From an uncultured Candidatus Berkelbacteria bacterium (lineage in GTDB: Bacteria; Patescibacteriota; UBA1384; XYA2-FULL-43-10; CAINNR01), in contig CAINNR010000030.1 in the NCBI GenBank assembly GCA_903851235.1, positions 13,210-77,209 of the forward strand: a DNA stretch of 64,000 nucleotides, read 5' to 3'. A model generated the notes under the pieces. The model saw only the letters and a program-made list of their open reading frames with translations. It was not told the origin of the DNA and searched no databases. This document shows positions 2,673-31,100 of this stretch, piece by piece (the first letter of the stretch is position 1; the number at the start of each line of letters is the position of its first letter). The position numbers were made by a program, and so were the translations under genes.

Positions 2673-3932
2673 ATGTTAGATATTGAACTGATACGAAAAG
2701 AACCGGAGGGAATTAAAAAAGCCATTGCCAGAAAGGGCGCCGATCCGGCTTTAATCGACGAAGTGGTTTTGATTGATCGCAATCGTCGCCGAGTGTTATC
2801 CGAACTGGAACGGGCGCAGTCGGAGTTAAATCGCCACTCAAAGGACATCGCCAATTTGCACGGTCAGCAAAAAATTGATGCTATCAACAACGCCGGAATT
2901 TGGTCGGCCAAAGTCAAAGAGTTAAAACCGGAGGCTGATCGATCGCAAAGGGAGTTTGTGGATATAATGCTCCTAATTCCGAATCCGCCACTCGCCGATG
3001 TTATCGACGGCGCATCCGACAAAGAAAACACCGTAAACCGTACTGTCGGGGAGATATCGAAATTTTCCTTCAAACCACTCGATCATGTTGAGTTGGGAGA
3101 AAAACTCGACCTAATTGACATCGAACGCGCTGGAAAAATCTCCGGTTCACGCTTTTATTTTTTGAAAAATGAATTGGTCCAACTGGAGTTTGCCTTAGCG
3201 CAATATGCGATGGAGATCCTGACGGCAGAAAAATTTGTGCCGATGATCACACCGGTGCTTTTAAACCGCGAAGCAATGACTGGCGCCGGATATCTGCCGG
3301 CCGGCGAGGATGAAATTTATAAAACTCAGGATGACTTGTATTTGGTTGGAACGTCGGAGCAACCGCTGGCCGGATATCACAGTAATGAAATTATTGATGG
3401 AAAAAATTTGCCCTTACGTTACGCCGGGTTTTCTAGCTGTTTCAGGCGCGAAGCCGGCAGCCATGGTAAAGATGTCCGGGGGATTCTACGGGCGCACCAA
3501 TTTGACAAAGTTGAAATGTTTTCCTTTTGCTTGCCGGAAAATTCAGAAAAGGAACATGAATATTTGGTCTCGCTGGAGGAAAAAATCGTTTCCGGTCTCG
3601 GATTGCCATATCAAATTGTTAATATTTGTGCCGGCGATTTGGGCTCCCCGGCGGTGAAAAAATATGATGTTGAAACTTGGATGCCGGGGCAAGACCAATA
3701 TCGGGAAACCCACTCCTGTTCAAATTGCACTGATTTTCAAGCTCGTCGTCTTAATATCCGATATCGCGACAAAGACGGCAAGGTTGCGCCGCTCCACACT
3801 TTAAATGGCACGGCAATTGCCATTGGTCGAATGCTGATCGCGATTATGGAAAACGGCCAGCAAAAAGACGGCAGTATCAAAATCCCGGAAATACTTCACA
3901 AATCTCTTAATTTCAAGGAAATTAAGAGATAA
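2673..3932 (+). CDS. serS: seryl-tRNA synthetase
   Basis: N-terminal coiled-coil arm plus class II core (GYHSNEIIDGKNLPLRYAGFSSCFRREAGSHGKD). Confidence 0.95.
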   Translation: MLDIELIRKEPEGIKKAIARKGADPALIDEVVLIDRNRRRVLSELERAQSELNRHSKDIANLHGQQKIDAINNAGIWSAKVKELKPEADRSQREFVDIMLLIPNPPLADVIDGASDKENTVNRTVGEISKFSFKPLDHVELGEKLDLIDIERAGKISGSRFYFLKNELVQLEFALAQYAMEILTAEKFVPMITPVLLNREAMTGAGYLPAGEDEIYKTQDDLYLVGTSEQPLAGYHSNEIIDGKNLPLRYAGFSSCFRREAGSHGKDVRGILRAHQFDKVEMFSFCLPENSEKEHEYLVSLEEKIVSGLGLPYQIVNICAGDLGSPAVKKYDVETWMPGQDQYRETHSCSNCTDFQARRLNIRYRDKDGKVAPLHTLNGTAIAIGRMLIAIMENGQQKDGSIKIPEILHKSLNFKEIKR

Positions 3933-3941
3933 CGAATAACT

Positions 3942-3982
3942 AAAAACGTATAACTAATAACCATAGCCAAGTAGTTAATAAG
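3942..3982 (+). repeat. 41-nt intergenic repeat element, copy 2 (downstream of serS)
   Basis: aaaaacgtataactaataaccatagccaagtagttaataag. Followed by (aagttaaa)x3 at 3981-4007. Confidence 0.5.
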
Positions 3983-4036
3983 TTAAAAAGTTAAAAAGTT
4001 AAAGTTATTAATTATTAGTTTGAATAGGAGGCCCAA

Positions 4037-4414
4037 GTGCAAATTAATGTCGTGACGAAAGATGTTATCATCACGGCCCGTCAGAAATCCGATATTGAGA
4101 AAAAAATCAGTCGACTTAAAAAATATTTGAAACATGAAAGTCCGGTGAATATCGAAGTTCACTTAATTGACGACTCTGGGCCGAACAAAACCGGAGTGAC
4201 GCAGAGTGTGAAAATTGATGTTGTTTCCGAGCATTACAATATTCACATCGAGGAAAAAAAGAATAATATTATGAAGGCTTTCGCCAATGCGCTCCGATCA
4301 GTTGACCGCCAGGTCCGCGATCAGCATAAAAAAGAGATCCAAAAAGCCCAAACCGGTGGCGGAAGATTTGACAAAGTTTTTGGGATTTTGGGAAAATTCC
4401 GACGGAAGAAGTGA
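4037..4414 (+). CDS. hpf: ribosome hibernation promoting factor / RaiA-YfiA family (GTG start)
   Basis: GGAGG RBS 6 nt upstream of GTG. The beta-alpha-beta-beta-beta-alpha pattern of the translation (MQINVVTKDVIITARQKSDIEKKISRLKKY...VEVHLIDD...VKIDV) is typical of HPF. Confidence 0.8.
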   Translation: MQINVVTKDVIITARQKSDIEKKISRLKKYLKHESPVNIEVHLIDDSGPNKTGVTQSVKIDVVSEHYNIHIEEKKNNIMKAFANALRSVDRQVRDQHKKEIQKAQTGGGRFDKVFGILGKFRRKK

Positions 4415-4493
4415 TGTAACGTGTCATCCTCGTAAAGACGGGAATCCACAAATAGTTTTGTCACCCTAAACTCGATTCAGGATCTCATTAATA

Positions 4494-4527
4494 GAATAAA
4501 AAAACGAGCGGCCGTTTTGGCTGCTCG
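4494..4527 (-). terminator. intrinsic terminator for the minus-strand pentapeptide-repeat gene
   Basis: ACGAGCggccgttttggctGCTCGT stem followed by T-run on the minus strand. Confidence 0.6.
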
Positions 4528-4577
4528 TGGTGTTTGGTAAAAGGTGAGTATCAGTGAAAGTCGAAGATTCTGTGGAC

Positions 4578-5174
4578 TTATGCCCATGTTCTGATCAATT
4601 CGGCAGCAGCGAGATAATCTTCCCCGTCTTTGTCGTCGCTGTGATCCCTGTCGATATTCCGGAGAAAGTCGTCAAGAGTTCCCCAGAAGCAACCGGTTTT
4701 AATCATCGGCCCGTCTACATGTCTGACGGCGTAAAGAAGGTCACTGCGACTTCCAATTGGGCCAATGTTCAGAATTCCTTGCGCTTGAAAGAGATCAGTT
4801 CCTTCGAGTGTCGTGCCTTTAATAATGGTTTGACCAAAAATGGTTCTTTCAAGATTTGTTCGATACAGATAAGCGTTTGTTAGGTCAACCCCTGTCAGGT
4901 TGGCTCCATGCAGGTTGGCAGACTCTAGGTCACAACCGATCAATTTCGCGCCGGTAAGATCGGCATAACTTAAGTCTGCGTTTTTAAGGTTGACGTAATT
5001 ATGCCGAAAACCCTTATAATATTTAATTTGCAGGTCGAGGTTACGAAGATTTGCTCCCGACAATTCGACACCGCAAAGCGACTTGCGATTGTGTGCGGCC
5101 TCCTCAACTGCCGTCTTAACACTTCGACGTCTACAAGTGAAAATGACGTCACCATATGTGTTCTTGAGTTTCAT
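4578..5174 (-). CDS. pentapeptide-repeat protein (Qnr/MfpA-like fold), start moved to Met at 5174
   Basis: Tandem A(D/N)LxxA(N/D)LxGAxL pentapeptide repeats (ANLRNLDL, ADLSYADLTGAKLIGCDLESANLHGANLTGVDLTNAYL). GGAGG RBS 6 nt before ATG at 5174. The 5175-5387 extension in the track has no support. Confidence 0.75.
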   Translation of the reverse strand: MKLKNTYGDVIFTCRRRSVKTAVEEAAHNRKSLCGVELSGANLRNLDLQIKYYKGFRHNYVNLKNADLSYADLTGAKLIGCDLESANLHGANLTGVDLTNAYLYRTNLERTIFGQTIIKGTTLEGTDLFQAQGILNIGPIGSRSDLLYAVRHVDGPMIKTGCFWGTLDDFLRNIDRDHSDDKDGEDYLAAAELIRTWA

Positions 5175-5386
5175 CTCTTGCCTCCAAAAGCCGTGTTGTT
5201 TGCGCGATTTGATTCTAGCATTAAACTTTCCAATTATCAAGAGTGTTTTTGTGAGTTGAAAAAATAGGCACAAAGTGGTAAAGTAAAAGCATAAAAGGAG
5301 ATTCTGATGCAGATTTATCACGCAGATAACCGCAGACGAAATTAGTGACAATCGGCGTGAAAGTTTGGTGTAAGAATTACAACACA

Positions 5387-19273: not shown

Positions 19274-20164
19274 ATGAACATTTACGATCAAATCGGCAAC
19301 AACAAATTTAAAACCGTTTTTTATATCGGGGTTTTTCTGATTTTTATTATCGCCCTTGGCTGGCTCTTTTCTTACATTTATCATTCGCCAGCAATTTTAA
19401 TCATCGCCATAATTATCGCCGTCGTTCAATCAATGACCAGTTATTTCTGGGGTGATGTTGTCGCGCTAGCGATGACTCATGCGCAGGCGGCGAAAAAATC
19501 TGACAGCCCGGATCTTTTTCGTATTGTCGAAAATTTGGCGATTACCGCTGGCATTCCGGTGCCGAAAATTTATATTATCAACGATGATTCGCCGAACGCT
19601 TTTGCCACCGGTCGCGATCCAGAGCATTCATCGATCGCCGTTACCTCAGGTCTACTATCGATTATGGATAAAAATGAAGTTGAAGGCGTTATCGCTCACG
19701 AGCTTTCCCACATTGGCAATCACGATTCATTATTGATGGTGGTTATTGTGGTTTTGGTTGGTGTTGTGGCAATCGCTTCAAACTTGTTCTTCCGAGTCGG
19801 TTTTTGGGGCGGCTTTGGCGATGATCGCGAGAGTGGAAATTCTGGCGGAATAATGTTGATTATCGGAATAATTATGGCAATTTTGGCACCAATCGCCGCA
19901 ACCTTAATTCAACTGGCAATCTCTCGTAAACGGGAATATTTAGCCGATGCTAATGGCGCGCTTCTGACTCGTTATCCCGAGGGTTTGGCAAATGCGCTTA
20001 GAAAAATCTCGGCTTATAAACAACCGGTTCGTTTTGCTAACGACGCAACATCACTGCTGTTTATTATGAACCCAACAAAAAAACGCTCGTGGTTTTCCGG
20101 TTTATTCGACACTCATCCGCCGGTCGAGGAACGAATCAAAGCCTTGGAGGCAATGGCCGAATGA
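19274..20164 (+). CDS. htpX: membrane zinc metalloprotease HtpX (M48)
   Basis: HELSHI zinc motif, four TM segments and C-terminal FDTHPP. Confidence 0.9.
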   Translation: MNIYDQIGNNKFKTVFYIGVFLIFIIALGWLFSYIYHSPAILIIAIIIAVVQSMTSYFWGDVVALAMTHAQAAKKSDSPDLFRIVENLAITAGIPVPKIYIINDDSPNAFATGRDPEHSSIAVTSGLLSIMDKNEVEGVIAHELSHIGNHDSLLMVVIVVLVGVVAIASNLFFRVGFWGGFGDDRESGNSGGIMLIIGIIMAILAPIAATLIQLAISRKREYLADANGALLTRYPEGLANALRKISAYKQPVRFANDATSLLFIMNPTKKRSWFSGLFDTHPPVEERIKALEAMAE

Positions 20165-21208: not shown

Positions 21209-21781
21209 ATGCCAGATGAAAAAAAGTCAGCGCCTGTAGCAACAACACCAGCTGCGGCGCCGGCAAAGAAAAACAACAGTACGATGATTATAATCATTGT
21301 CGTTGTTGCAGTTTTGGTTTTGGGAGTTGGTGGAACGTTGATTAGCCGATGGGTGGCGAGGAAAGCGGCGGACAAAATTGCCGGTGGAATTCTTGGCGCG
21401 GCAACTGGAAGTAATGTTTCAGTTAACTCCGATAGCGGAACAACCTCGGTTTCCAACGGTTCTGGTTCGACCTCGGTTGGCAACAATGTGGCGTGGCCAT
21501 CTGACATGCCGTCGACCGTGCCACAATTGAAATCCGGTACATTGACAATGGCAACATCGGACAAAACCAACAAGGCGTGGTCGGTCGAAGCCGACAAAGT
21601 TAGCCAAGCACAATTTGATGTATATAAAGCCTCGGTTGAATCGGCTGGTTGGACAAATACTGCCACTACTTCATTCGGCGCCAGTATGATTACCTACGAA
21701 AAAGATACTTACGACTTGACACTAATTTACGATGCGTCATCGAGCGGAGTTTCAATTTCGGTAACGACAAAATCGGAATAA
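21209..21781 (+). CDS. membrane-anchored hypothetical protein (N-terminal TM, Ser/Thr-rich linker, extracytoplasmic domain)
   Basis: GGGAGG RBS before ATG at 21209. TM segment MIIIIVVVAVLVLGVGG. The antisense ORF 21121-21666 in the track is rejected. Confidence 0.55.
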   Translation: MPDEKKSAPVATTPAAAPAKKNNSTMIIIIVVVAVLVLGVGGTLISRWVARKAADKIAGGILGAATGSNVSVNSDSGTTSVSNGSGSTSVGNNVAWPSDMPSTVPQLKSGTLTMATSDKTNKAWSVEADKVSQAQFDVYKASVESAGWTNTATTSFGASMITYEKDTYDLTLIYDASSSGVSISVTTKSE

Positions 21782-22311: not shown

Positions 22312-22671
22312 ATGAAAAAGTTGAACCAGATTTACAAATGTAGCACTTGTGGTAACATTGTCGAAATTGTTACCGGTGGTGGTGGAGAATTGGTTTGTTG
22401 CGGAGCGCCGATGGAATTGCAAAGCGAAAAGTCCGGCGAAGAAGGGATGGAGAAGCATAAACCGGTGATTGAAGAATCAATGGTTTTGGTTGGCTCGGCC
22501 CCACATCCGATGGAAGCTGAACATCACATTGAGTGGATTGAAGTTTTGGAGGGTGATGATGTTTGCAGGAAAGTTTTATCGGTTGATGACAAACCGCAAG
22601 CGGAGTTTTGTAACAAAGATATCAAAGTCGCCCGCGCATATTGTAATATTCACGGACTGTGGAAAAACTGA
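22312..22671 (+). CDS. dfx: desulfoferrodoxin (2Fe superoxide reductase)
   Basis: N-terminal desulforedoxin CxxC...CC (KCSTCGNIVEIV...LVCCGAPM). C-terminal neelaredoxin-like H-rich domain (EKHKPVIE, HPMEAEHHIEWIEV, C, H). GGAGG RBS. Confidence 0.85.
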   Translation: MKKLNQIYKCSTCGNIVEIVTGGGGELVCCGAPMELQSEKSGEEGMEKHKPVIEESMVLVGSAPHPMEAEHHIEWIEVLEGDDVCRKVLSVDDKPQAEFCNKDIKVARAYCNIHGLWKN

Positions 22672-22734
22672 CCGTTGGTCAGAAAAATGAAATTCCAATT
22701 CTTATTTATCACGCAGATTTTCGCTGATAAAAAA

Positions 22735-22754
22735 CTACGCCAATTGTGGCGTAG
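22735..22754. terminator. hairpin CTACGCCAattgTGGCGTAG, T-run on the minus side (terminator for the 22774-23229 gene; weak for dfx)
   Basis: Perfect 8-bp stem. Followed on the minus strand by tttttt. Confidence 0.5.
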
Positions 22755-22773
22755 GTGGAATTTGGTCTTTGCT

Positions 22774-23229
22774 TTAGAAGGCAAGTTGTTGTATCAATAA
22801 TTCTTTATGATCGCCGAAACTCTGAGAAAGCGCAACACAGAATTTTAACAATTCCTCAATGTCATTGCCGGCAAAGATGCCAGAAGGATCAAGGCAGATT
22901 GCTTGCAAAATACACAGTTTTGACGTAAGTTCGGCACGCAATTTTGGAAAGACGGTTCCAACGGTACCATCGTCACCGGCACGGTATTGGTATTCAAGCG
23001 CCTGTGAAACGATCGAAAATTCGCCATTGTACCATGACACTTGAATAAGATGATAATCTTTAGCACCTTCACCCAATACTTGGCTGACATTGCAGAGCCA
23101 GCTTAACAATGGTTCCAGATGTTTAGAGATATCTACCATGTTGATTTTCCCGAGTCTGATATTGTCAACGTCGATCATTGCGGCTGTTACAATCCGAGAC
23201 ATTTCGTCAACTTCACTCAGATCGAGCAT
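22774..23229 (-). CDS. hypothetical protein (151 aa), divergent from the heliorhodopsin operon
   Basis: GGGAGG RBS 6 nt before ATG at 23229. Confidence 0.55.
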   Translation of the reverse strand: MLDLSEVDEMSRIVTAAMIDVDNIRLGKINMVDISKHLEPLLSWLCNVSQVLGEGAKDYHLIQVSWYNGEFSIVSQALEYQYRAGDDGTVGTVFPKLRAELTSKLCILQAICLDPSGIFAGNDIEELLKFCVALSQSFGDHKELLIQQLAF

Positions 23230-23268
23230 CTCGCTTACCTCCCGCTTGGGAATGTTGTTGCAATCAGC

Positions 23269-23295
23269 TTAACAAAAAGTATATATCTTTGTCAA
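23269..23295. promoter_or_regulatory. palindromic operator-like motif copy 1 (TTAACAAAAAGTATATATCTTTGTCAA)
   Basis: Imperfect dyad around TATATA. Near-identical copy at 25105-25131, on the other side of the heliorhodopsin locus, also in a divergent promoter region. Confidence 0.35.
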
Positions 23296-23319
23296 AATAT
23301 TAGCTTTTTGGAGATAAAA

Positions 23320-24018
23320 ATGTCAGAAATTATTGACCCAAACGAACGTGAACACTTGGTATTAAAATATGGTGAGCAAATAAAAAACATTGTTGGTTAT
23401 AACGATCTCTCGCCTGAGGAACAGCGAGATTTGCGATACGACCCACGCAAAGATGTTTCAGTTGGACTGGATAAAATTTTCTGTCATAACGTTTATAATC
23501 GGGAAGACGGTAATTTTGCGATCGAACAATCCGGAGATGATACTTTGTTTATCGCCTATGTCCTTTCGGTTTTGGGTTTGCGTGATGGCAGGGCGCTTTT
23601 GAAATCCTATGAACGAATGGCGCCGGCGAATCAGGGTGTGGATCTGAAACAGTTGAAAGTAGAATCGGAGACAATCGATCATTCCGTTGTTGAACACTTT
23701 CTGGAAGAATTTGAGAAATCAAGGATGGATTTAACCGCAGAATTTGATGATGGTATGGATTTGGAGAACTCAACTCGATCGGAGGATATTAAACAATACT
23801 TGCGCGGTTTGATAATCTCCGGATCGTGTTTGAAACATTGTGAGATCTTGTTGCCGTTTTTTAGCCCAGAGCAGACAGCCCAAGTTGAGGAAATTATTGG
23901 AACTGTTATCGAAATGAGAAAAAAAAGAAATGACGACTTTGCAAAAAAGATAAATAATGAGGCAAAAGAGAGAAGAATTGCCGGCTTGGTAAATAAAATC
24001 GACGTTATTGATAATTAA
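23320..24018 (+). CDS. hypothetical protein (232 aa), immediately upstream of heliorhodopsin and probably co-transcribed
   Basis: GGAG RBS before ATG at 23320. The 23119 start in the track overlaps the divergent gene. Stop lies 15 nt before the heliorhodopsin RBS. Confidence 0.55.
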   Translation: MSEIIDPNEREHLVLKYGEQIKNIVGYNDLSPEEQRDLRYDPRKDVSVGLDKIFCHNVYNREDGNFAIEQSGDDTLFIAYVLSVLGLRDGRALLKSYERMAPANQGVDLKQLKVESETIDHSVVEHFLEEFEKSRMDLTAEFDDGMDLENSTRSEDIKQYLRGLIISGSCLKHCEILLPFFSPEQTAQVEEIIGTVIEMRKKRNDDFAKKINNEAKERRIAGLVNKIDVIDN

Positions 24019-24033
24019 TTTAGGGAGGAAAAA

Positions 24034-24795
24034 ATGGAGAAAAAATTGCAAGGGTTGCGGAAATTTAATTTGTTTATGGCGCTTTTGCATTTTGGCCAAG
24101 GAGTGGCGATGCTTTGGCTGTCCAGCAGTTTCAAATTACCGGTGATGAGTTCGTATTTGAAGTTTGATGTTGCGACTAGAACATTACAACCAAATCCATC
24201 AACATTATTCAGTTTGAAAATTGGCCCAATGATTGCGATTTTTCTCTTTCTGTCGGCTTTGGCTCATCTTTTAATCAGCACGGTTTTTAATGATTGGTAT
24301 AATAAAAATTTAGCTCGCGGTATCAATTTTGCTCGCTGGATCGAGTACTCCTTTTCGTCATCAATTATGATTATTGTCATAGCCATGCTGGTTGGAGTTT
24401 ATGACATCGGTGCGCTCATCCTCTTATTTGTTTTGAATGCGACAATGATTTTGTTCGGATGGATGATGGAACTTCATAATCAGTCGACTTCAAAGACTAA
24501 TTGGACATCATTCATTTTCGGTTGTATCGCCGGTTTGGCGACTTGGGTTGTAATTGCTCTTTATCTTTTTGGCTCCGGCGACAGCGCTCATCATGCGCCA
24601 AATTTCGTTTACTGGATTTACTTTTCAATCTTTATCTTTTTCAACTGCTTTGCCATCAATCAAGTTTTGCAGTACAAAAAAGTCGGATCGTGGAAGGATT
24701 ATCTATACGGCGAACGCGCCTACATTATTCTGTCATTGATTGCCAAATCACTTTTAGCCTGGCAAGTTTTCGCCGGCACTTTGCGACCAATGTAA
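24034..24795 (+). CDS. heliorhodopsin (7-TM retinal-binding photoreceptor, inverted topology family)
   Basis: Seven TM helices. Strong similarity, recalled from memory, to heliorhodopsin 48C12: FNLFMALLHFGQG; RWIEYSFSSSIMIIVIA with the counter-ion Glu; NATMILFGWMME; FIFGCIAGLATW; FNCFAINQVLQYKKVGSWKDYLYGERAYIILSLIAKSLLAWQVF with the Schiff-base Lys. GGGAGG RBS. Confidence 0.85.
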   Translation: MEKKLQGLRKFNLFMALLHFGQGVAMLWLSSSFKLPVMSSYLKFDVATRTLQPNPSTLFSLKIGPMIAIFLFLSALAHLLISTVFNDWYNKNLARGINFARWIEYSFSSSIMIIVIAMLVGVYDIGALILLFVLNATMILFGWMMELHNQSTSKTNWTSFIFGCIAGLATWVVIALYLFGSGDSAHHAPNFVYWIYFSIFIFFNCFAINQVLQYKKVGSWKDYLYGERAYIILSLIAKSLLAWQVFAGTLRPM

Positions 24796-24804
24796 CAAAT
24801 AAAT

Positions 24805-24825
24805 AAGGTGAGCCTTGCTCACCTT
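24805..24825. terminator. bidirectional hairpin AAGGTGAGCcttGCTCACCTT between the convergent heliorhodopsin and 24832-25062 genes
   Basis: Perfect 9-bp stem with a 3-nt loop. AT-rich flanks on both sides. Confidence 0.55.
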
Positions 24826-24831
24826 ATGTGT

Positions 24832-25062
24832 TCAGTACCCAAACCAAGTATGAAACCTTTCGGACTTTCCATTATCGAATTTAAGGTAATCAATGTCTGC
24901 ACCGTCTTCTTTGATAACCGCTATAATACCTTCCCTAGTGTTCGTCATTTCCAACTGACCGTAACCCCCATTAGATGGCTCACAATCGATGATTGCGATC
25001 AATGGTAATTTAAGCTGTTCTGCCCTTCGCAGAATTCTGGCGAGAATTTCTCCGGTTATCAT
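24832..25062 (-). CDS. small hypothetical protein (76 aa)
   Basis: AAGGAG RBS 8 nt before ATG at 25062. The longer track ORF to 25320 has no RBS. Confidence 0.45.
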   Translation of the reverse strand: MITGEILARILRRAEQLKLPLIAIIDCEPSNGGYGQLEMTNTREGIIAVIKEDGADIDYLKFDNGKSERFHTWFGY

Positions 25063-25104
25063 GCCAGTGTCTCCTTGGTTCAGGTGGTTCGTCACTGTGA
25101 TGAG

Positions 25105-25131
25105 TTTAACAAAAAATGTATATTTTATCAA
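25105..25131. promoter_or_regulatory. palindromic operator-like motif copy 2 (TTTAACAAAAAATGTATATTTTATCAA)
   Basis: Matches the 23269-23295 motif at about 22 of 27 positions with one indel. Confidence 0.35.
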
Positions 25132-25156
25132 TGGTTTTAAATAAAAGAGAGGCAAC

Positions 25157-25357
25157 ATGACATCTGACCAATTGCCAGTTTGGTTTTCGGTTGTGATTTT
25201 AGTTTTAACCCTTTGGAGTTTGCCGTGGAAGGGAATCGCACTTTGGAAAGCGGCAAAAAACAACGACATCGCCTGGTTTGTTATAATGATGATTGTTAAT
25301 ACCATCGGAATATTAGACATCCTCTACATTTATATTTGGGGCAAGAAAAAAGCCTAA
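25157..25357 (+). CDS. small two-TM membrane protein (DUF5652-like)
   Basis: LWSLPWKGIALWKAAKNNDIAWFVIMMIVNTIGILDILYI pattern. Confidence 0.55.
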   Translation: MTSDQLPVWFSVVILVLTLWSLPWKGIALWKAAKNNDIAWFVIMMIVNTIGILDILYIYIWGKKKA

Positions 25358-25502
25358 TTTCGTCGCCCCGGTTGACATTATCATTTAAAAAGTGTACTAT
25401 AATAGTATACAAATATTGTTTGGTAGCATTTCTCCGGCTAAATTTGAGGGAGATCTAACGAAACAATTGTTAATCTGATTGTTGTTTTTTTAATTTAAAA
25501 AC

Positions 25503-28083: not shown

Positions 28084-31100
<3,017 letters not shown>

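Follow-up and report, generated by a model that had tools for sequence, protein, structure and literature searches.

We analyzed a heliorhodopsin (HeR) locus in a 64-kb stretch of DNA (the window) from an uncultured Candidatus Berkelbacteria bacterium. Four small genes, here called A to D, lie around HeR. A preliminary description had proposed all four as candidate HeR partners. Genes A and B as one cassette and gene C as another are likely lineage-specific accessory insertions in the two spacers that flank HeR, and the coupling of B to HeR is likely positional. B and C were absent from all 160 HeR loci to which the window was compared. D appears, from its recurrence in these loci, to be the only one of the four with an HeR linkage conserved in relatives. 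The window contains the following features at HeR.

22312..22671, plus strand: Dfx, a desulfoferrodoxin-type superoxide reductase (Pfam PF06397, 1.7e-16; PF01880, 1.6e-15)
22672..24018: A+B insertion block, ~1.35 kb, lineage specific, within the Dfx-HeR spacer; includes terminators and a divergent promoter region
22668-22682: second terminator-like hairpin downstream of A
22735..22754, minus strand: terminator-like hairpin with a T-run downstream of A
22774..23229, minus strand: A, 151 amino acids (aa), acidic soluble orphan
23320..24018, plus strand: B, 232 aa, acidic, soluble, predicted all-helical, with a basic C-terminal tail
24023..24028, plus strand: HeR Shine-Dalgarno site, GGGAGG, conserved with locus L089
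24034..24795, plus strand: HeR (Pfam PF18761; NCBIfam NF038020)
24803..24827: hairpin of 11 bp separating the convergent HeR and C, called as a minus-strand terminator
24832..25062, minus strand: C, 76-aa acidic orphan, inserted between HeR and DUF5652
25157..25357, plus strand: D, a DUF5652 protein with two predicted transmembrane (TM) segments, 66 aa

Comparison of heliorhodopsin loci

The HeR protein was used as the query, and 80 loci were retrieved from GTDB species representatives and 80 from JGI metagenomes. The 160 HeR loci (L006 to L085 and L088 to L167) included 145 nonredundant loci and contained 1.17 Mb of flanking DNA. They were searched by tblastn and by iterated hidden Markov models over all six-frame open reading frames (ORFs). 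No homolog of B or C was retrieved from any of the 160 loci, including relatives with an HeR that is 81 to 86% identical. A had a homolog in 1 locus, and D had homologs in 4. Homologs of Dfx were retrieved from 3 loci, those of g200 (a gene farther upstream in the window) from 11, MsrB from 9, and MsrA from 6.

The closest relatives encode other genes around HeR. L089 (HeR 85% identical) encodes HtpX, a DUF998 protein, g200, g134, a 270-aa protein on the minus strand, MsrB, a 156-aa protein, MsrA, Dfx, HeR, DUF5652, TypA, a 322-aa homolog, and LigA, in that order. L088 (86%) encodes g200, g134, MsrB, a 157-aa protein, Dfx, HeR, a radical SAM/B12 protein, DUF5652, and TypA. L006 (85%) encodes an 834-aa surface protein upstream of HeR. 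L007 (81%) encodes a DUF2207 protein and a 236-aa ORF upstream of HeR. Dfx abuts HeR in L088 and L089, and DUF5652 lies directly downstream of HeR in L007 and L089, so B and C do not stand as conserved HeR neighbors. Within the four-gene partner set, D recurs by HeR, B and C never do, and A does so once, as a remnant without a start codon. Because only DUF5652 is conserved there, the partner interpretation is supported only in part and for the most part lacks support.

Boundaries and polarity of the insertions

In the DNA alignment, the match of the window to L088 and L089 extends through the Dfx stop codon and is lost beyond it. The window realigns at ATTTAGGGAGGAAAAA-ATG, the HeR ribosome-binding context common to L089, directly after the B stop codon. 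The distance from the end of Dfx to the start of HeR is 26 to 50 nt in L088 and L089, so positions 22672-24018 form one block inserted there. The block contains A with two terminator-like hairpins, B, and the 90-nt divergent intergenic region between A and B. Downstream of HeR, the gap to D is 361 nt in the window (hairpin, C, and a 94-nt intergenic region) versus 31 to 47 nt in L007 and L089, so C and its promoter amount to an insertion of ~0.3 kb. The insertion junctions are not flanked by direct or inverted repeats, and no integrase or transposase was found.

A neighbor-joining tree of HeR, unbootstrapped and from a single protein, gave the topology ((L006,L089),window),(L007,L088). L089 and L088 fall on either side of the window's branch, and both have Dfx abutting HeR. 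Dfx is also directly upstream of HeR in the distant locus L166 (33-326). One insertion in the lineage of the window is therefore more parsimonious than two precise deletions, and the polarity appears to be insertion here rather than repeated loss elsewhere. Dfx would thus be the gene that ancestrally lay next to HeR on its upstream side.

The favored explanation is as follows. The backbone would consist of HtpX and further genes, g200, g134, MsrB and MsrA (in relatives), Dfx, HeR, DUF5652, TypA, and, farther on, LigA. Lineage-specific genes would come and go at its junctions. A two-gene cassette, composed of minus-strand A and its own terminators, a divergent promoter region, and plus-strand B, would have entered the 26- to 50-nt Dfx-HeR spacer. 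It would have left the ancestral HeR ribosome-binding site intact. A second small cassette would have entered between HeR and DUF5652, bringing a terminator hairpin, minus-strand C, and a new DUF5652 promoter region. B would then read into HeR because of where the insertion landed, and its position would be no evidence of shared function. Most likely, A, B, and C are ordinary accessory genes that turn over fast. Such genes are common in small genomes from the candidate phyla radiation (CPR).

The HtpX-to-LigA block seems to contain several slots in which orphan genes come and go. L088 encodes a 602-aa B12-binding radical SAM protein (3452-5260) between HeR and DUF5652, at the same junction as C in the window. 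The typA-ligA slot varies too: it is empty in L007 and contains one ORF in L089 and two ORFs in the window.

Coding potential of A, B, and C

The preliminary description placed five ORFs in this region, and all five were found at the positions it gave. It had called A divergent and C convergent, and both are indeed on the minus strand. The identical arrangement was assembled, with 100% identity, in five separate ENA assemblies. These are independent, so the arrangement is not an assembly artifact.

A, B, and C look like real coding genes, judging from their Shine-Dalgarno sites and host-like codon usage. The Shine-Dalgarno sites are present at 6 to 8 nt. The codon-usage scores were 0.17 for A, 0.31 for B, and 0.22 for C, compared with 0.26 +/- 0.05 for the window's long ORFs. 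The annotated frame scored best for each gene, and codon usage and GC content were host-like. The three proteins are acidic, with isoelectric points (pI) of 4.5 to 5.0 and a negative grand average of hydropathy in two of the three. No long hydrophobic stretch was seen by eye in their translations (no TM predictor was run).

The strand bias of the window is strong. Nearly all ORFs of at least 180 aa are on the plus strand, and the GC skew stays positive over the whole length. A and C belong to the few genes on the minus strand. No tRNA genes or Rfam families were found anywhere in the 64 kb.

A, B, and C had no Pfam matches at an E value of <=0.1 and only noise in NCBIfam at an E value of <=1. 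Nothing beyond noise was retrieved from PHROGs, PADLOC, or PDB sequences. A word-index search of 5.8 billion proteins returned only the queries themselves. No relatives were found on 2.9 million viral contigs, and no paralogs of A, B, C, or D were found elsewhere within the window. The statement that none of the neighbors matches a known family is thus correct for A, B, and C and incorrect for D, which is a genuine DUF5652 member. The neighbors had also been offered as candidate transducers or chromophore-handling proteins. We found no transducer, chromophore-biosynthesis, or HeR-partner domain in A, B, or C, and this role is not supported. They also had no Pfam or NCBIfam match to retinal or carotenoid enzymes (Blh and Crt families).

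Gene A

A has a GGGAGG Shine-Dalgarno site 8 nt ahead of its ATG, and its pI is 4.55. No family or PDB match was found for it (Pfam, NCBIfam, PHROGs, PADLOC, and PDB). Its sole relative among the 160 HeR loci was retrieved from L006 (6812-7231, minus strand), with 35% identity over 109 residues. This relative is convergent with HeR and 50 nt downstream of it, which is the opposite side from A in the window. It does not contain an ATG, GTG, or TTG before the conserved N-terminal part, so this copy may be decaying. The sensitive search for A relatives was made only inside HeR loci, and the adjacency is biased by this ascertainment. It therefore carries little weight. The AlphaFold2 model of A, built from the single sequence, has a mean predicted local distance difference test score (pLDDT) of 46.0 and contains four helices and a hairpin. 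A and C have no sequence homology to each other.

Gene B and its junction with HeR

The Shine-Dalgarno site of B is GGAG. The N terminus of B (MSEIIDP) aligns with those of both of its homologs (MAEIINP and similar), so the start at 23320 is preferred to an in-frame ATG at 23119. The B stop codon is 15 nt from the HeR ATG, and the HeR Shine-Dalgarno site lies inside this gap, 4 nt after the end of B. A 15-nt distance had been reported from B to the HeR ribosome-binding site. The figure is right when measured to the ATG, but the distance to the Shine-Dalgarno site is only 4 nt.

A terminator scan found no terminator-like site between B and HeR, so read-through is plausible. B had been called almost certainly cotranscribed with HeR. 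This is somewhat overstated, given the weak promoter-like sites at 23930-24035, in the 3' end of B. B and HeR are probably cotranscribed.

An exhaustive phmmer search of B against 1.84 billion representative proteins retrieved two true homologs. P0003 contains 215 aa and is 45% identical to B (4e-45). P0005 contains 212 aa and is 32% identical (9e-19). The three-member family has 46 invariant positions, so B is a real, conserved, and very rare protein. P0003 is encoded on L086, the contig with the closest B homolog (111-758; contig of ~1.2 kb). It is directly upstream of ligA (780-1184), with a 21-nt gap. In the window and its relatives, ligA is 2.5 to 4.2 kb downstream of HeR in one syntenic block. 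P0005 is encoded downstream of another gene. The homolog of that gene is 3 kb from HeR in L101, with no B-like gene nearby. Neither homolog repeats the order of B followed by HeR.

Two further matches, P0004 (7.7e-21) and P0006 (1.5e-5), were rejected as homologs. They are giant low-complexity proteins in which a PDQEDLRYDP-like motif of ~30 residues is repeated 6 to 16 times. Matches of B to a Fic-domain protein in PDB (E value of 0.21) and to ORC6 (profile; E value of 0.46) were insignificant. The best match to a PHROG scaffolding protein (E value of 0.0037 over 37 residues) was noise. The AlphaFold2 model of B, built from a three-sequence alignment, is all-helical with a mean pLDDT of 44.3. 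Foldseek searches of the A and B models against PDB returned nothing at an E value of <=0.001 and were uninformative because the models had pLDDT values of <50.

B, possibly with A, may instead be a newly recruited, lineage-specific cytoplasmic effector or transducer. B, which is soluble, acidic, and made from the same transcript, would then pick up light-driven changes at the cytoplasmic face of HeR. The 15-nt gap, the shared strand, and the missing terminator fit this, as do the solubility and acidity of B. Published HeR partners are diverse, operon encoded, and lineage specific (PMC9529153, PMC9769723, PMC11109279, PMC8612252), and an A-like gene is beside HeR in L006 too. We nevertheless consider a recruited partner unlikely. 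B is missing from all relatives, even those with the most similar HeR, and both of its homologs are in non-HeR contexts as far as their short contigs reach. An insertion that kept the ancestral Shine-Dalgarno site accounts for the B-HeR junction. No signaling domain was found in Pfam or NCBIfam, and the structure model is unusable. We consider it unlikely that HeR has a dedicated partner in A, B, or C.

Several points weigh against the reading of A, B, and C as accessory cassettes. B is 15 nt before HeR with no terminator between them, and the two are probably expressed together. Tight operon spacing of this kind first revealed the published HeR partners (glutamine synthetase, photolyase, and ABC transporter). 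HeR partners are lineage specific and diverse (PMC8612252), so nonconservation is weaker evidence here than in most systems. The only known relative of A is also within 100 nt of HeR (L006), although this is ascertainment biased. The contigs with the B homologs are only ~1.2 kb, and an HeR may be present a few kilobases away. On L086 the B homolog is beside ligA, a gene that shares a syntenic block with HeR in the clade of the window. The polarity depends on the unbootstrapped one-protein tree. Finally, the searches and models assigned no function to A, B, or C.

Shared 27-nt motif

The two intergenic regions that would have come with the insertions contain copies of one motif.

23263..23289, plus strand: 27-nt motif, copy 1, in the A/B divergent intergenic region
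25100..25126, plus strand: 27-nt motif, copy 2, in the C/D intergenic region

The copies are identical at 22 of 27 positions (81%). The 18-nt core, TTAACAAAAANTRTATAT, is present at only these two sites in the 64 kb, as a pattern derived from the same two copies. At both sites the core is exactly 51 nt upstream of the next plus-strand ATG (B and D). The motif was not found in relatives. Read by eye on the minus strand, it supplies the spacer and -10 element of TTGAYA-N17-TAARCT promoters for A and C. A promoter scan called only the C promoter and not that of A. The motif may be a shared promoter or operator carried in by both insertions.

It also hints at a second alternative, in which a small mobile, selfish, or defense-type module (such as a toxin-antitoxin-like pair or a phage-derived moron) that enters short spacers carries A/B and C as its cargo. 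The motif is common to both intergenic regions with the same spacing to the start codon. Both insertions are precise, are in short spacers, and have their own terminator and promoter. Their orientation is opposite to that of the surrounding genes, and these junctions hold different inserts in other lineages. Against this, PADLOC gave no match, PHROGs gave only noise, and the 2.9 million viral contigs contained no relatives. The junctions have no integrase, transposase, or direct or inverted repeats. GC content and codon usage are host-like, and A and C are unrelated in sequence. We regard such a module as very unlikely.

Gene C

C has an AAGGAG Shine-Dalgarno site 8 nt upstream, a promoter-like site (TTGATA-17-TAAACT), and a terminator. 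No homolog was found in the 160 HeR loci or in the word-index search of 5.8 billion proteins. A similarity to AccA (acetyl-CoA carboxylase carboxyltransferase alpha; NCBIfam, 0.041; PDB, 0.0025) was rejected. Its score adds up three stretches whose individual E values are all at least 46. It is highly improbable that some of the ORFs, chiefly C, which is short, has no homolog, and resembles AccA only in those insignificant stretches, are chance ORFs in leftover intergenic DNA, given the strong Shine-Dalgarno site, promoter-like site, terminator, and host-typical codon usage of C in its annotated frame, the invariant positions shared by the B homologs, and the 35%-identical relative of A.

Heliorhodopsin and gene D

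The identity of HeR is certain from its profile matches. It matched Pfam PF18761 with an E value of 1.5e-105 (352 bits against a cutoff of 26.7 bits; residues 8-250) and the NCBIfam equivalog NF038020 with an E value of 3.2e-107 (357.6 bits against 100). The retinal-lysine motif SLIAK (SxxxK, helix 7) is present in its translation, within YIILSLIAKSLLAWQ. SLIAK is among the common motifs of CPR HeRs (PMC9166423). The nearest HeRs, at 81 to 86% identity, are from metagenome-assembled genomes of Berkelbacteria and other Patescibacteria, so the window is from a CPR genome.

D matched Pfam DUF5652 (PF18893) with 77.7 bits against a cutoff of 23.4 bits (E value of 5.4e-22) over 61 of 71 profile positions. 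Its translation shows two hydrophobic stretches by eye. It had been labeled a DUF5652-like two-TM protein, and the profile match bears out the family label. DUF5652 is downstream of HeR by 31 nt in L007 and by 47 nt in L089. In L088 it is downstream of HeR with one gene in between. In L016 it is divergent, 38 nt upstream of HeR, in a different synteny. An apparent frameshift in the DUF5652 gene of L002 was rejected because it is a scaffold gap of Ns.

That DUF5652 recurs beside HeR is newly observed here, but the weight of this is limited: L007, L089, and L088, three of the four cases outside the window, share ancestry with it, and together with L016 the four provide only two independent contexts.

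Conserved neighbors and oxidative stress

The backbone in the window contains the following further features.

19274-20164: HtpX-like protease, recognized by sequence alone; it is followed by a 173-aa ORF and then a MazG-like protein, upstream of g200
21209..21781, plus strand: g200, exported protein of 190 to 200 aa with a membrane anchor or lipobox and a C-terminal domain of ~110 aa
21882..22286, plus strand: g134, 134-aa conserved hypothetical backbone protein; homologs that are 54 to 56% identical are at the same position in L088 and L089
25503..27314, plus strand: typA, which we take, by sequence recognition only, to encode a TypA/BipA-like GTPase; synteny marker of the backbone, 87 to 89% identical in L007, L089, and L088
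27455-29040: two further ORFs between typA and ligA
29043..31100, plus strand: LigA, backbone marker

g134 had no family match in Pfam or NCBIfam. Upstream of typA, a near-consensus promoter (TTGACA-17-TACTAT) is at 25372-25400, within 25358-25502, followed by a leader of ~100 nt. A short AT-rich hairpin with a T-run can be seen by eye in the leader, just ahead of the start codon. The leader had no Rfam match at the gathering score.

Homologs of g200 were found in 11 other Patescibacteria HeR loci, and in 5 of these they are on the same strand, 43 to 158 nt upstream of HeR. The five are as follows.

L104, 374-910: g200 homolog directly upstream of HeR
L040, 5271-5843: g200 homolog directly upstream of HeR
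L082, 5386-5946: g200 homolog directly upstream of HeR
L105, 4385-4921: g200 homolog directly upstream of HeR
L121, 1322-1876: g200 homolog directly upstream of HeR

Members of the g200 family have a lipobox or an N-terminal membrane anchor, and 1 of the 12 matches Pfam DUF6591 (1.7e-5). Profile searches of the family against PDB found nothing. In the clade of the window, intervening genes have pushed g200 and HeR 2 to 3.4 kb apart; these are g134, MsrB, MsrA, and Dfx, plus A and B in the window.

The immediately adjacent genes in 132 nonredundant HeR loci were each scanned against Pfam. Upstream of HeR, this census retrieved SDR proteins in 9 loci, ABC-2 permeases in 4, DUF2177 in 3, an ABC ATPase in 3, and Dfx in 3. 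Downstream, it retrieved an ABC ATPase in 7 loci, a ClpB-type AAA+ protein in 6, FolB in 4, photolyase in 3, rubrerythrin in 2, and pyrimidine-dimer glycosylase in 2. No neighbor in the 132 loci resembles A, B, or C. Ten HeR neighbor groups have been published: glutamine and NAD+ synthetases, photolyase, MerR, TerC, ABC transporter, SDR, alpha/beta hydrolase, DUF2177, and DUF2238 (PMC11109279). Recovery of SDR, ABC transporter, DUF2177, and photolyase among them validates the census. The Pfam census misses g200, which is second only to SDR as an upstream neighbor. In the Patescibacteria loci compared, g200 is the most persistent upstream neighbor of HeR.

MsrB (9 loci) and MsrA (6 loci) exceed a rough expectation of ~1 each in 1.17 Mb, at one copy per 1 to 4 Mb, for loci that are not independent. 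In L089 (3034-4962) and L088 (1212-2601), MsrB, and in L089 also MsrA, lie just before Dfx upstream of HeR. MsrB, MsrA, Dfx, and HeR look like an oxidative-damage repair cluster that contains HeR. HeR has been tied to oxidative-stress genes (Bulzu et al. 2021, PMC8612252) and likewise in CPR (Chiriac et al. 2022, PMC9166423). The conserved neighbors (Dfx, with MsrA and MsrB in relatives, DUF5652, and g200) fit this published link.

A further reading goes beyond the neighborhoods themselves. In the Berkelbacteria-type clade, a photo-oxidative-stress operon, (MsrB-MsrA-)superoxide reductase-HeR-DUF5652, may have HeR as its light sensor. In this case g200 would be its oldest companion across Patescibacteria, and the inserted B would be a new client gene. 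We hold this only as a tentative and rather doubtful possibility. If it is true, DUF5652 in the membrane and g200 outside the cell would be previously undescribed HeR partners. To our knowledge, all published HeR partners are cytoplasmic enzymes or an ABC transporter.

Significance of the locus

HeR function is being worked out partner by partner, and gene neighborhoods are the main source of candidates. The window is a further CPR HeR locus with oxidative-stress neighbors and lineage-specific orphan genes. It indicates that tight operon-like spacing can arise as a by-product of recent insertion. Three tempting but unsupported HeR-partner candidates (A, B, and C) are struck off. Attention shifts to the conserved CPR neighbors, which are superoxide reductase, the methionine sulfoxide reductases, DUF5652, and the exported DUF6591-like protein. 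These neighbors are concrete instances for the published idea that HeR is tied to protection from light-induced oxidative damage.

Comparison with known systems

Htr-type transducers of sensory rhodopsins are encoded beside the rhodopsin and cotranscribed with it, which is the likeness to the present locus. They contain two TM helices, a HAMP domain, and methyl-accepting signaling domains, whereas Pfam gave neither a HAMP nor an MCP-signal match for A, B, or C.

The published operon-encoded partners of HeR are glutamine synthetase (PMC9529153), photolyase (PMC9769723), and the ABC transporter OmrDE. B resembles them in that it is soluble, on the same strand, directly upstream of HeR, and probably on the same transcript. 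Those partners recur in many genomes, whereas the arrangement of A, B, and C is repeated in no related genome. The ten neighbor groups of PMC11109279 include no match to A, B, or C. DUF5652 (PF18893) is a small two-TM family of no known function in Pfam, and D fits its profile.

For the published linkage of HeR to oxidative stress (PMC8612252, PMC9166423), the main texts list catalase, peroxidase, thioredoxin, glutaredoxin, and glyoxalase, and superoxide reductase and Msr are unmentioned there. In the present locus the linkage is to Dfx, which is outside the four genes first proposed as partners, rather than to A, B, or C. The likeness to the present locus is in Dfx, directly before HeR in the conserved backbone, in MsrB and MsrA in relatives, and in rubrerythrin and photolyase in the census.

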